Source: a phage
Sequence record: PZ534534.1
DNA: 64,000 nt
Reading direction: 5' to 3' (one strand)
Part shown: in pieces, positions 11,982 to 55,893 of the stretch
Numbering within the stretch: the stretch's first letter is position 1
How the letters are laid out: every line of letters starts with the position of its first letter
The notes under the pieces: generated by a model
Database searches by the model: none
What the model saw: only the letters and a program-made list of their open reading frames with translations
Told to the model about the DNA's origin: nothing
Made by a program: the position numbers and the translations under genes

Positions 11982-12248
11982 ATGAAACTAACTCAGTTTT
12001 TATGGGGACTGGTTGCGGCATCTGATGACCCTACGAAAGTGTCCCAATCTAAGCTATGGTCGAACATAGGCATGGCGGTGATGACTGGGGGGTTTATTCA
12101 TATGGGGGATAATGATACGCTTCCTGAATGGTATGCGTGGATATACGCGCCTTCAGTAGCTTGCCCCCAGCTTATTAGCAAATTCATCTCGCTCCGGTGG
12201 GGTTGCCAGCACCCTGACCACGTTAAAAACGAAGAGCAAAAAGCTTAA
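11982..12248 (+). CDS. hypothetical protein
   Basis: 88 aa ORF with GAGGG RBS between fiber genes. Confidence 0.3.
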   Translation: MKLTQFLWGLVAASDDPTKVSQSKLWSNIGMAVMTGGFIHMGDNDTLPEWYAWIYAPSVACPQLISKFISLRWGCQHPDHVKNEEQKA

Positions 12249-12257
12249 GGAGAAATC

Positions 12258-14003
12258 ATGGCGCAAGACATGACAAGCTTTGAGCAGGCGGTAGATCAAG
12301 TAATTGTTGATTCTGAACGTTTGCACCTGATTGTCAACGGTAACGCTGTGGATGAAGTTGTCGTAGAGGATGGGACCACCATCCCTACGGTACGAAAAGC
12401 CATGCTTGACACCCTTTATTTTAAAACGCCACCGATCCCTTGGGCGTATGGTGCATCCACAACAGTTTTTAACCAGCTGTACGAGTTTAAAGGGGACACA
12501 GGCCCTCAGTGGTGGTACGCTCCCGCAGCATCAAAATCTAACCCGGTTAGAATGCCAGCAGATCCTTCACAATCTCCAAACTGGAGATTATATACCGATT
12601 CTGCAGTAATGGCAAAATACTACGCAAAACTTAACAGTCCGAGGTTCGAAGGTGACCCGCGAGTACCTACGCCTCCAATGGACGACAAATCCGAGTCTAT
12701 AGCAAACACAGAGTTTGTTGTTGACTATGTGGATAGCATATTTGAAGCCATGGAGGGAATGAAAGTTACTGTAGGATCTTTGGTGGTAAAAGGTCTTACA
12801 GAACTTGCTAACACTATAGTTGGTGGCACACTCACCTTACATGGGCCTGTTAATGGAGCAGATTCTACTGCACGCTTCAGGAACCTAATCCTCACGGCAA
12901 ATACTTCTACACTTACTTTTGCGTGGAGTGATCCTAAGCATGCAGACTGGAGAAGCACAGAGCTGCAACCTCATGAAGTGTCCACCCACAGGGTTATAGC
13001 TGACACTATAACTTCTGGGAAACCAGTGGCTAATAATAACGATGTGCATTTTGATGGTCTAGGTAATAACTTTTTTGACTACGTGTACATTCGTGGTAAT
13101 GCCATGAAGGCAGCAACCGAACCGACATTGCAGGTAGATGGAACCACCAGGGTTAAGAACCTTGAGGTGACAGGCACTGTTACAGGGATAACCTACTCTG
13201 TCGATGGCACCATGATTTACCCTAGCTATATTGAAAGCACGGGGGACGCATTAATAAATGGTGATTTAGAAGTTGGCGGATCTGTAGTTATTCGAGGTAC
13301 AGCCTCTATCCAAAACATAGCTCTGAATACCCTAAGAGTCAATGAGCGTGCAACTTTTGAAGGGGAAGGGCTTACAGCCAACAAAGGTGTAATTACCGAG
13401 CTGACAACCACTACTTTAACTGCAACAACTGCAAACTCTGAAAACTGCAACGTTACCAGAAACTTGCAGGTAAATGGAGATGTTAGTTTAAACGCAGCAG
13501 GGACGGGCACCACCTACCTTCACAACCTTGAAATATCCGGCACAGTGACTGGGTGGCTGCCAGACTTCTCTAATGTCAACTTTGTTTGTAATGGCATTAA
13601 CTCCAGTGGCAAGATAACCACCTCTCAAGAAATTGAGGCGGGTAAAACCATTACTGCCCCTACTTTCCACGCAGGAAAGGTAGATTTTGATTTAGAGGAG
13701 GTTGACGCGTCCAGTGGGACATGGACACCTAACGGGCAGGCCAGTATGTATGTTGTCCACGCGAAAGGGGATTTTACAATAGGACAATGGCCTGGTACAT
13801 CAGCGGAAGATAAACCTTATCCATTCACTGCGGTTATCTATGTCATTCAGGATGCTGTAGGTCACAACGTGACTTTGCACGATAAGTATGCTATCCTGTC
13901 GGCAACGCCTGTTATTAATAACAAGGCTAATAGTGTTACCTTGCTGCAATTAACATATTGTGGTGTTGGTGATATCGTAGACGTAGTAATTGCACAACGT
14001 TAA
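12258..14003 (+). CDS. tail fiber / tailspike-like protein
   Basis: 581 aa; short G/T/V-rich repeats (GTVTGI, GTLTLHGPV) typical of fibrous or beta-helical tail proteins. Confidence 0.45.
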   Translation: MAQDMTSFEQAVDQVIVDSERLHLIVNGNAVDEVVVEDGTTIPTVRKAMLDTLYFKTPPIPWAYGASTTVFNQLYEFKGDTGPQWWYAPAASKSNPVRMPADPSQSPNWRLYTDSAVMAKYYAKLNSPRFEGDPRVPTPPMDDKSESIANTEFVVDYVDSIFEAMEGMKVTVGSLVVKGLTELANTIVGGTLTLHGPVNGADSTARFRNLILTANTSTLTFAWSDPKHADWRSTELQPHEVSTHRVIADTITSGKPVANNNDVHFDGLGNNFFDYVYIRGNAMKAATEPTLQVDGTTRVKNLEVTGTVTGITYSVDGTMIYPSYIESTGDALINGDLEVGGSVVIRGTASIQNIALNTLRVNERATFEGEGLTANKGVITELTTTTLTATTANSENCNVTRNLQVNGDVSLNAAGTGTTYLHNLEISGTVTGWLPDFSNVNFVCNGINSSGKITTSQEIEAGKTITAPTFHAGKVDFDLEEVDASSGTWTPNGQASMYVVHAKGDFTIGQWPGTSAEDKPYPFTAVIYVIQDAVGHNVTLHDKYAILSATPVINNKANSVTLLQLTYCGVGDIVDVVIAQR

Positions 14004-54472: not shown

Positions 54473-54479
54473 TACTTGA

Positions 54480-55000
54480 AAATTCCTGGCATATCAAGTA
54501 TAAGGGGGATTTCTAAAATGGATTTCCTCCTTTTGATATTTCACCGGGCTGGATATTTTAAAATTCTTAGAAAATCAGAAAATGGATCGAAAACTAAAAT
54601 GGATTTTTCAGAGTAGGCGCGACAAGCTGAATAGCTCATCCTATCGTTTGCACCATATTCCAGACCACCATTATAGATTTCCCACACATGCTAACCTCCC
54701 TCTACTAGAACTTCCTCCACTTACCCTTGACCTTCTATGGTAACAATCTAACCACTATCTTGAAGTTGCGGTGCAGCTTTCCAGGTACTCGATCTACTTT
54801 TCATTCCAGGGCTTGGATTTTCTGAAAATTTTTCTCGATAAATTTCTCAGTACTCGATCTGTTTTTCGTTTTCTGAATCGGATTTTCTGGAAATCGTTCC
54901 GGATCTCGACCTGAAATTTTTGGGGACGAAATCTATTTTTCGTTTTCAGAAATGGATTTTTAAAATTTCTATATGGGAATATTTTATGGGGCACTGTTTT
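54480..55000. repeat. AT-rich non-coding region with iteron-like direct repeats
   Basis: AAAATGGATTT at least 4 times; GGATTTTCTGRAAAT twice; about 45-bp unit TACTCGATCT...GGATTTTCTG at 54786 and 54851. Confidence 0.5.
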
Positions 55001-55108
55001 ATAGGAAATTGTTACGGAGGGTAATTAGCATGCTAATTAAATTTATTAAATGCGAGGGATTCTTATTTAGAATTTTGAATGATAATTATTCTCGTTTGCA
55101 GAATAACG

Positions 55109-55146
55109 GGCAGGCCCGGTGATTGTCTCCCGGCCCCTGCTGCCCC
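55109..55146 (+). repeat. GC-rich motif, copy A
   Basis: Contains CCCGGTGATTGTCTCCC inside AT-rich surroundings. Confidence 0.5.
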
Positions 55147-55247
55147 GGCTTGTTATTATAGTATCACACAGGACAAAGAAGGCAAGGATTTTTTGCATAA
55201 ATTTTTAAATGATAATGATAACCGTTCTCATTTTATGAAGCGCCCAT

Positions 55248-55285
55248 CCCCGGTGGTTGTCTCCCCCGTCACCGGTGCCTGCCGT
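55248..55285 (+). repeat. GC-rich motif, copy B
   Basis: CCCCGGTGGTTGTCTCCCCCGTCACCGGTGCCTGCCGT; direct repeat of copy A. Confidence 0.5.
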
Positions 55286-55437
55286 CCTTTCGATAGGTAT
55301 ATTATGCCGCCTGGCGGGGCCGCTGTCAACACTTTTCAAAAAATTTTTCTAACCTGATGCGCTAACCGTTGCAACCTGGCGGGGCCAGCCTGGCAGGTCC
55401 GCACTATAAAGTAAACAGCTACAGAAGAGGTACAAAA

Positions 55438-55614
55438 ATGAAAGGTAATGCTACTCGCCTGGGAAATGTAGTGATTAATGATACGGAAGCTATCGCCCTG
55501 GTTGAAAAGGTTATGGCGGGAGCGTTGGAACATAAAGAAGAGTACGAAAAAAAATGGTGGTTAACCTGGCGGGGGGCGGCAGGTGGATTCTATCATAAAA
55601 ATAATTTAAAATAG
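55438..55614 (+). CDS. small hypothetical protein
   Basis: ATG 55438 after AGAAGAGG; 58 aa; preceded by TATAAAGTAAAC box. Confidence 0.4.
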   Translation: MKGNATRLGNVVINDTEAIALVEKVMAGALEHKEEYEKKWWLTWRGAAGGFYHKNNLK

Positions 55615-55617
55615 TCG

Positions 55618-55645
55618 TTGACAACAAGGTTAATCATGGTATTAT
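55618..55645 (+). promoter_or_regulatory. sigma70-like promoter
   Basis: TTGACA-N16-TATTAT. Confidence 0.5.
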
Positions 55646-55695
55646 TACCCTACAAGGTGAACAACACCGCACTAACCAGTAAAGAGGATAAATTT

Positions 55696-55893
55696 ATGAA
55701 CGCATACGGGATCAAAGTACGTCGCAACACTCGCCAGGTGGTCACCAATCAAGTGATTTGCCGGGTGGATGTAACCATTAACAACGGGCAAGGCCTTTAT
55801 AAATTTCGTCGCGGTCATAGCTATACCCTGCAACAGCTTGATCGTTGCGCCCTGACAAAAGGACAGATCAACCACTGGTTTAATAAAAAATAA
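55696..55893 (+). CDS. small basic hypothetical protein
   Basis: ATG 55696 after AAAGAGGA; 65 aa. Confidence 0.4.
   Translation: MNAYGIKVRRNTRQVVTNQVICRVDVTINNGQGLYKFRRGHSYTLQQLDRCALTKGQINHWFNKK

Follow-up and report, generated by a model that had tools for sequence, protein, structure and literature searches.

The 64,000-nucleotide stretch of phage DNA analyzed here (sequence record PZ534534.1, hereafter the window) carries a gap of 965 bp between genes, at positions 54473-55437, where iterons, palindromes and predicted promoters are found together with an AT-rich tract. Judged from its sequence and conservation, this gap is a real cis-acting DNA control site, whose layout is kept across at least four genera of the Vequintavirinae. 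Its elements are conserved, unique to the locus and partly palindromic, and a spacer of fixed length lies among them, which argues for a site of protein-DNA assembly. Because iterons and an AT tract are combined with predicted promoters that are directed into both and have no coding target, a transcription-activated replication origin is our best single reading, put forward tentatively.

The window shares 99.9% identity with Escherichia phage naswa (MN850595), a Vequintavirus belonging to the rV5-like myophages, and a window position is obtained by subtracting 42062 from the naswa position. Phages of the rV5-like group (Vequintavirinae) serve in O157 typing and have been proposed for phage therapy. 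In retrievable papers, their origin, early control circuitry and mode of DNA entry are undescribed, and those on rV5, LL12, CB7, phiTE and the BASEL and Korf collections do not describe the gap locus. No transcriptome of rV5-like phages was found in the literature. The gap is a concrete, sharply bounded candidate, amenable to deletion, cloning and footprinting.

Iterons and conservation of the gap

The gap contains three tandem composite units with the core GTACTCGATCT...TTTTTCGTTTTC...ATCGGATTTTCTG, starting at 54785, 54850 and 54924. Unit 1 (54785-54849) is made up of GTACTCGATCT ... GGATTTTCTGAAAAT ... TCGATAAATT, and unit 2 (54850-54923) carries GTACTCGATCTGTTTTTCGTTTTCTGAATCGGATTTTCTGGAAAT. 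Unit 3 (54924-54975), with GGACGAAATCTATTTTTCGTTTTCAGAAATGGATTTTTAAAAT, is degenerate; it belongs to repeat family D1, has 77% identity to unit 2 and includes an inverted repeat, ACGAAA/TTTCGT. An earlier note on this DNA had described a repeated unit of about 45 bp. This unit is real and extends to 62 nt, with 71% identity between the copies at 54778 and 54843 and a degenerate third copy at 54914-54960. The highest off-diagonal repeat score, 20, stands about 8 standard deviations above 200 dinucleotide shuffles (10.2 +/- 1.2, maximum 15). The words GTACTCGATCT, TTTTTCGTTTTC and GGATTTTCTG are confined to the gap in the whole 138.6-kb genome; the iterons are therefore not a dispersed phage promoter motif.

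Shorter repeats are also present. The earlier note had counted one of them at least four times. Exact matches to AAAATGGATTT occur only at 54515 and 54596, and four copies are reached only with the relaxed core, AAAATGGAT being found three times within 82 bp (54515, 54579, 54596) and GAAATGGATTT at 54949. The second short repeat, GGATTTTCTGRAAAT, occurs twice as had been stated, at 54815 and 54880. Between iteron units 1 and 2, at 54835-54844, TCGATAAATT has its single occurrence in the genome and is invariant in eight Vequintavirus sequences; it matches perfectly the published high-affinity motif of H-NS. In the iteron block, pyrimidines make up 60.6% of the + strand; a leftward RNA would thus be purine-rich, which is the one pointer to a persistent RNA-DNA hybrid. 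An array resembling clustered regularly interspaced short palindromic repeats (CRISPR) was rejected, since the imperfect repeats occupy the entire unit and leave no spacers. The Vequintavirus iteron core carries one GATC, and a Dam/SeqA-type GATC cluster was discarded, with 4 GATC in 965 bp vs. 5.05 per kb genome-wide.

To the left of the iterons lies an array of short motifs, block A (54510-54612), with three copies of AAAATGGAT, two of GATATTT (54535, 54552) and a palindrome, ATTTTAAAAT. Block A is almost invariant among the eight Vequintavirus genomes. Within Vequintavirus, the iteron block is 85-93% identical and the palindrome and GC units 92-97%. When the window is compared with more divergent relatives (HMD-6, FV3 and the IMG/VR contig L131), identity is 85-89% in the upstream gene, 85-93% in the iteron block, 92-94% in the palindrome and GC units and 56-69% in the spacer that joins block A to the iterons (54616-54785), with at most three gap columns. 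The spacer thus keeps a constant length (170 +/- 2 bp) while its sequence drifts, which indicates a constraint on DNA, not on protein.

In other genera, distant blastn matched only window positions 55030-55170. Syntenic gaps with a like architecture were nevertheless found in Mydovirus BIS47, in Seunavirus PVP-SE1 and GAP31, in Certrevirus F1M1E, PBES02 and PcCB7V, and in the IMG/VR contig L095. Each opens with a block of GATATTT repeats (at least 4 copies), followed by a variable spacer. Three tandem units then follow, 63-78 bp apart, with the core GKWCTCGATCG...TTTTC...ATCGTATTYT; contig L095 has an extra, fourth iteron core. Next come one to four palindromes AATGAKAATnATTCTCATT and then (T)TGCAGAATrrCGGGCA..CCGGTGATTGTCTC. 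The GATC of these iteron cores is part of a TCGATCG palindrome. Phage W70 and the Phapecoctavirus phiWec186 have different repeat units at the syntenic position. Pattern scans of IMG/VR gave mostly chance matches with a 15-base pattern and only three true loci with a 22-base pattern. The earlier note had named in advance a lack of conservation in related phages as what would speak against it; the repeats are kept in relatives, including those of other genera.

The gap does not appear to code for protein. In eight related genomes, depositors annotate differing and mutually inconsistent small open reading frames (ORFs) over it, on different strands. No ORF of at least 30 aa is common to all eight aligned Vequintavirus sequences across the gap, where reading frames are disrupted by T-run length variation. 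The view that the region has no credible ORF is upheld by this comparison. The iteron arrays of several relatives have no stops in any of the three forward frames, and genes have been annotated across them: PVP-SE1 gp202 (L003:1174-1458), GAP31_043A (L005:1145-1426), BIS47_205 (L141:927-1271) and F1M1E UNA02750 (L142:986-1324). PVP-SE1 gp202 and GAP31_043A share 48% aa vs. 86% nt identity. With frames free of stops and "proteins" far more divergent than their DNA, these four genes are probably spurious, and several deposited annotations have thus probably put spurious genes across the repeats. A hidden protein gene was rejected on both grounds, the lack of an ORF shared by the eight Vequintavirus and the divergence as protein of iteron ORFs elsewhere.

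The region 54480-55100, to which the earlier note referred, falls within the gap, which is flanked by naswa_126 and naswa_128. All neighboring genes are on the + strand. A 2-nt length change with respect to naswa, at about 55500-55636, shifts coordinates rightward of it by +2, and the frame of the naswa_129 homologue is that of the window ORF 55618-55893. Some 8 kb separate the gap from the end of the DNA polymerase gene upstream, and its immediate neighbors on both sides are small genes without assigned function. The position at a boundary between modules stands, and the term "replication module" for the left side is loose, given the distance of the polymerase gene. The description as AT-rich is borne out, with a GC content of 35.9% for 54480-55100 vs. 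43.6% genome-wide. Positions 54906-55105 (71% AT) form the second most AT-rich 200-bp window of the genome; this tract overlaps iteron unit 3 and is a candidate unwinding element.

Some database matches to the gap concern other labels. Matches to the gap region include 16 or 17 records titled "Campylobacter phage", with C. jejuni given as the host; identity is 92-97% in four of them (MG065635, MG065644, MG065659, MG065682). Such matches suggest contamination or mislabelling. Plasmid or chromosomal relatives were ruled out: no E. coli genome matched, and the only "plasmid" match is a Vequintavirus genome. This PLSDB record, CP057073.1 (137,565 bp), was deposited as an E. coli plasmid, non-mobilizable and originating from pooled cattle faeces, and matches at 91.7% over 97% of the gap-region query. 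By this match and its length of 137.6 kb it looks like a Vequintavirus genome, which suggests co-assembly or a carrier state.

Promoters, palindromes and genome ends

Directly 3' of the stop codon of the upstream gene, a compound hairpin is found on the + strand at 54485-54546. It pairs AAGGGGGA (54502-54509) with TCCTCCTT (54525-54532) and is followed by TTGATATTT. As RNA, the + strand has a folding energy of -25 kcal/mol (z = -2.9), vs. z = -0.8 for the minus strand, and a G/A variant in the left arm retains pairing on the + strand only, via G.U. The hairpin is likely to be the terminator of the upstream rightward operon.

At the other side of the AT tract, two leftward promoters are predicted. 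P-B (55301-55350, - strand, with its box at 55329->55301) reads TTGACA-17-CATAAT and has an A/T-rich upstream element, AGAAAAATTTTTTGAAAAGTG. With 11 of 12 consensus positions, it has the top promoter score of the gap. P-A (55158-55185, - strand, 55185->55158) reads TTGCCT-16-TACTAT, with a TG before, and is second on the minus strand; the best plus-strand score (14.08 at 54476) ranks between the two. Both promoters are of the early sigma-70 type and oriented against every neighboring gene, into the AT tract and the iterons, and no ORF conserved in the eight Vequintavirus genomes lies downstream of them. The upstream half of P-B (AGAAAAATTTTTTGAAAAGTG TTGACA) is nearly identical to a rightward early promoter at about 62,340. 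In addition, a weak rightward promoter, TTGAAT-18-CAGAAT, is predicted; its frame is kept in Seuna- and Certrevirus, and Mydovirus BIS47 has CTGAAT instead of CAGAAT.

The most widely conserved part of the gap is GC-rich element A (55108-55150, GGGCAGGCCCGGTGATTGTCTCCCGGCCCCTGCTGCCC), which has 76-86% identity in Phapecocta-, Mydo-, Seuna- and Certrevirus. GC-rich element B (55240-55290) is a degenerate copy of it (family D7). A conserved RNA hairpin in the GC element was rejected, as RNAalifold gave three pairs and no compensatory change with 14 sequences; z-scores for single sequences are only -0.8 to -2.8. A cassette made of a promoter and a GC element is found at 63776-63860 (+) and at naswa 106,640-106,775 (L139:578-713), and is homologous to two copies in the gap, which have the opposite orientation. 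In the cassette, TTGCAA-17-TATACT stands directly before a GC hairpin with the loop GGGAGACAAUCACCGG (-23 kcal/mol, z = -2.8), and P-A is homologous to the promoter of the copy at 63,776. The cassette could be a 5' stabilizer, a put-like element or a small RNA.

The genome ends of these phages have been placed elsewhere. A 459-bp direct terminal repeat was determined in LL12 by PhageTerm (PMC6658697), and terminal redundancies of 458 bp were reported for EdH4 and HdK5 (Korf et al., PMC6563267). In the EdH4 record the first and last 459 nt are identical, and these duplicated ends match the LL12 repeat position for position, with 95% identity. The repeat corresponds to naswa 109,397-109,855, equivalent to 67,335-67,793 in window numbering, beyond the window and 12 kb right of the gap. 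The distance from gap to mapped end is 11.9-13.3 kb, or 8.6-9.6% of 138.6 kb. The 11 kb in between hold about 30 small genes, all oriented toward the end, and most predicted sigma-70 promoters of rV5 fall in this terminal 11-kb block. Just outside the terminal repeat, at naswa 109,270-109,370 (L139:3208-3308), about six copies of TGTGTAAAC / ATGTAAAC are found, whose reverse complement GTTTACACA agrees at 8 of 9 positions with the DnaA-box consensus.

Two palindromes flank GC-rich element A. Palindrome A (55075-55104, +) contains AATGATAATTATTCTCGTT at 55078-55096, in the spacer of TTGAAT-18-CAGAAT. It has two mismatches to AATGAGAATnATTCTCATT and agrees at 14 of 19 positions with the Fur consensus GATAATGATAATCATTATC at 55075. 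Palindrome B (55208-55232) contains GATAATGATAACCGTTCTC, with 16 of 19 positions at 55211, and AATGATAACCGTTCTCATT. Only four sites in the whole genome have at most three mismatches to AATGAGAATnATTCTCATT: the gap contributes two (55078, 55214) and the terminal repeat another two, besides a palindrome with four mismatches. The three terminal-repeat palindromes lie at naswa 109,694-109,855 (L139:3632-3793), the last one only 9-29 nt from the physical genome end (5'-GGCGGACGRAATGGGAATACTTCTCATTC).

As sites for comparison, the Fur sites of ryhB and nohA were taken from MG1655. By sequence the gap palindromes qualify as Fur boxes, which are defined by a match to the consensus GATAATGATAATCATTATC or to a 7-1-7 inverted repeat. 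The phage consensus AATGAKAATnATTCTCATT differs by two mismatches from the E. coli ryhB Fur site GCGAATGAGAATGATTATTATT, which has been rated at 25.2 bits (Chen et al., PMC2189734). By sequence the gap palindrome is hence a good Fur box, and its binder could be Fur or equally a phage protein. In a Keio screen with LL12, only lipopolysaccharide genes were required (PMC7229145); this result is mute on Fur, because a repressor would not show in such a screen. The 12-nt word TTGTCTCGCGAT, which in the ryhB promoter of E. coli (L150) extends over the -10 region and the start, also occurs in the conserved GC element of PVP-SE1 (L003:1545-1565), downstream of the Fur-type palindrome; this sharing may be due to chance.

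Since the palindromes are confined to the gap and to the last 30-160 nt before the physical end, they might form a two-site system joining the genome ends to an internal locus 12 kb away, which we regard as unlikely. Were Fur the binder, a virulent phage family would adjust its early transcription, and possibly the firing of replication, to iron, or else amplified phage DNA would titrate Fur off host genes. The phage has annotated aerobic and anaerobic ribonucleotide reductase genes, whose enzymes need iron. In the other version, an end-binding phage protein would synapse the terminus with the iterons and stage DNA entry, as has been proposed for T5. The analysis raises a testable link between the motif of a host iron regulator, the genome termini and an internal control site.

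Replication origin or other function

The replication origin proposed in the earlier note is plausible on anatomy: three direct repeats are unique to one locus, an AT-rich element is adjacent, and the predicted P-A and P-B are directed at the AT tract with no coding target ahead of them, as in transcription-primed origins. A sequence-specific protein, probably phage-encoded, would bind the iterons and block A, and the fixed spacer length suggests that the DNA between them could be looped or wrapped. Early in infection, host RNA polymerase would start at P-B and P-A and traverse the G-rich leader into the AT tract. This leftward transcription would open the DNA or leave an RNA-DNA hybrid priming DNA synthesis, as happens at the T7 primary origin and at T4 oriF and oriG. 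Firing would be tuned by the converging weak promoter together with the palindromic operators, to which Fur or a phage protein would bind.

Several observations weigh against an origin at this place. P-A and P-B are predicted promoters, and in the searchable literature neither transcripts nor replication have been mapped for these phages. With Pfam and PHROGs, the flanking genes gave no initiator and no domain for helicase loading or DNA binding. The scan covered 17 flanking proteins encoded in the window and three proteins of about 280 aa found upstream of the gap in other genera; none matched Rep, O, DnaA-like or helix-turn-helix families. An adjacent initiator or partition gene was rejected on these blank results, the protein of about 280 aa being without a Vequintavirus homologue. 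No consensus DnaA box was noticed when the conserved blocks were read by eye, not scanned with a tool, and GATC sites show no enrichment. Each unit has two boxes and spans 65-78 bp, beyond the 17-22 bp of classical iterons. GC skew falls from left to right across the gap, from about +0.13 to about +0.06. The authors of the rV5 study sought the origin by skew; every shift tracked a change in transcription direction, and none was reported here (PMC3606486). A leftward fork from the gap would also meet about 27 kb of rightward genes head-on, and the divergent transcription point near naswa 10.6 kb and a rival locus in its neighborhood are better placed.

This rival locus is located 1.5 kb from the divergent point. 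At naswa 12,090-12,260 (L138:12090-12260), just downstream of a "putative transcriptional regulator" gene, four palindromes TGTCCGTnnnACGGACA precede a tract with 81% AT, the highest AT content of any 100-bp window in the genome. This locus is a candidate origin or operator, by its sequence at least as origin-like as the gap. The GC-rich stretch that follows, at naswa 12,320-12,600, looks structured.

Nearly as likely as an origin, though still doubtful, is a regulatory boundary without origin function, set between the middle (replication) operon and the terminal 11-kb early block. The terminator would block rightward read-through, the leftward promoters would insulate via antisense or colliding transcription, and the iterons, block A and the palindromes would be operators of an early-to-middle switch, for a phage regulator or perhaps for host Fur or H-NS. 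The gap is indeed the upstream edge of a promoter-dense early region, since the interval from the gap to the terminal repeat contains the rV5 promoters P164-P195A and few are located beyond the gap. The terminator-like hairpin on the + strand, the palindromic operator inside the TTGAAT-18-CAGAAT spacer in several genera, and the convergent, overlapping arrangement of P1 (+) and P-A (-) all fit such a switch. So do the dispersal of the promoter-GC cassette as an early-region module and the perfect H-NS-type motif TCGATAAATT at 54835. It is harder to reconcile with iterons about 200-540 bp from P-A and P-B, whose long composite units are atypical operators and are absent elsewhere in the genome despite many early promoters. 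About 1 kb with a length-conserved spacer is also much for a simple switch, and no regulator gene is adjacent.

That the locus makes non-coding RNA, with regulatory RNAs started from the leftward or the Fur-type rightward promoters and the repeats serving as RNA modules, is quite improbable. Strong predicted promoters without ORFs, and a layout resembling the Fur-repressed ryhB promoter, would agree with it. In Seuna-, Mydo-, Certre- and Phapecoctavirus and in W70, CAGAAT is followed by a conserved stretch whose length is constant (199-205 nt; L003:1525-1745, L005:1551-1770, L141:1358-1580, L142:1341-1560, L004:1563-1790, L144:1320-1545), fitting a small RNA of about 100-200 nt. It has the Fur-box promoter, an internal TTGCAA-17-TACAAA promoter and GGCGATCCACCTTCC; at its end, a + strand hairpin resembling a terminator carries three invariant G.U pairs, followed by a U-rich tail. 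From these features it is a candidate Fur-regulated small RNA without Rfam match. However, this stretch is missing from Vequintavirus and from PcCB7V, the GC hairpin has no compensatory change, and the iteron cores of other genera are DNA palindromes, pointing to recognition of double-stranded DNA. In Rfam, the window and seven related loci gave nothing at the gathering threshold and chance-level matches at E <= 10, and a described RNA family was rejected. So was a mimic of a type III antitoxin, as the pseudo-ToxI locus of phiTE lies near tRNA and terminase genes, is not syntenic with the gap, and no Rfam ToxI match was obtained.

Even less probable is control of DNA entry. In such a scheme the terminal 8-9% with the early genes would enter first, a complex on the repeats and palindromes would pause transfer, and the inward P-B and P-A would help to pull in the remaining genome, as E. 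coli RNA polymerase does for T7. The gap lies 8.6-9.6% from the mapped end, close to the 7.9% of the T5 injection-stop site, which is a 1.66-kb untranslated region with repeats better conserved than the neighboring ORFs (bioRxiv 10.1101/866236); the conservation of the gap fits this pattern as well. The only strong palindrome matches outside the gap are inside the terminal repeat, one of them 9-29 nt from the end, and the leftward promoters face the DNA that would not yet have entered the cell. Yet the leading end and stepwise entry are assumptions for these phages, leftward transcripts would reach the hairpin 54485-54546 after about 0.8 kb, and no T5-like DnaA-box pairs were noticed on reading the conserved blocks by eye, without a tool scan. 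The T5 A1 protein is large, and the ORFs and annotated genes of the early block, all below about 210 aa, are too small for an A1 homologue.

The earlier note had also offered a packaging (pac) or terminal-repeat site, which is refuted for this locus by the mapped genome ends. A gap palindrome also adjoins the true terminus, and two deposited records break at gap palindromes: the two ends of phiWec189 (LC739538; L147/L148) share 148 bp, delimited exactly by palindrome B on one side and palindrome A on the other, and those of Salmonella phage R7 (PQ002170; L002/L149), annotated as attL/attR, share 91 bp bounded by AAAAAATTTTTT and a palindrome. But the 459-bp repeat is placed 12 kb away by two independent determinations in the same species, PhageTerm in LL12 and the duplicated ends of EdH4. 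Both record breaks have perfect palindromes on either side, as expected of assembly-graph breaks, and are probably such breaks, not true ends. A partition-like site, the last suggestion of the note, finds no support: the phage is virulent, and the scanned flanking genes gave no ParA/ParB-type or other DNA-binding domain.

Relationship to known systems

The gap shares features with several known systems. Like the centromeres of plasmids and prophages (the 43-bp repeats of F sopC, the dispersed sites of N15), it has tandem units of tens of bp with palindromic cores. In contrast, there are only three units, no ParA/ParB genes were detected nearby, and the phage is virulent. The T5 injection-stop (iss) region is likewise a large untranslated region 8-9% from the end; it directly adjoins the inner edge of the block of small early genes, and related elements recur at the terminus as a second site. 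Terminal repeats measure 459 bp here vs. about 10 kb in T5, and the terminal block has only ORFs below about 210 aa, a comparison with T5 A1/A2 made by size only. With ryhB-type promoters repressed by Fur, the phage locus has in common a palindrome in the promoter spacer and the clustering of copies, up to four in Phapecoctavirus. It differs in its virulent context and in the extra copies at the genome end, with no evident promoter.

Iteron origins (lambda ori, P1 oriR, R6K, pSC101) also have direct repeats with internal dyad symmetry beside an AT tract, unique in the genome and conserved as an array amid drifting surroundings. Their iterons are 17-22 bp long, whereas the composite units of the gap are 65-78 bp; no adjacent or overlapping initiator gene was found, and no DnaA box was noticed in the conserved blocks, read by eye only. 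With respect to the T7 primary origin and to T4 oriF and oriG, the promoters of the gap are of the host sigma-70 type, those origins lack long iterons and a second motif array, and an R-loop or priming at the gap is hypothetical. In all these large virulent phages, however, one or two promoters (here predicted) point into an AT-rich tract without a coding target. Here, an annotated DNA polymerase gene is located about 8 kb upstream, and a gene product of the primase/helicase type has been reported in rV5 (PMC3606486). Finally, the gap lies about 9% from the genome end, as compared with about 15% for the primary origin of T7.

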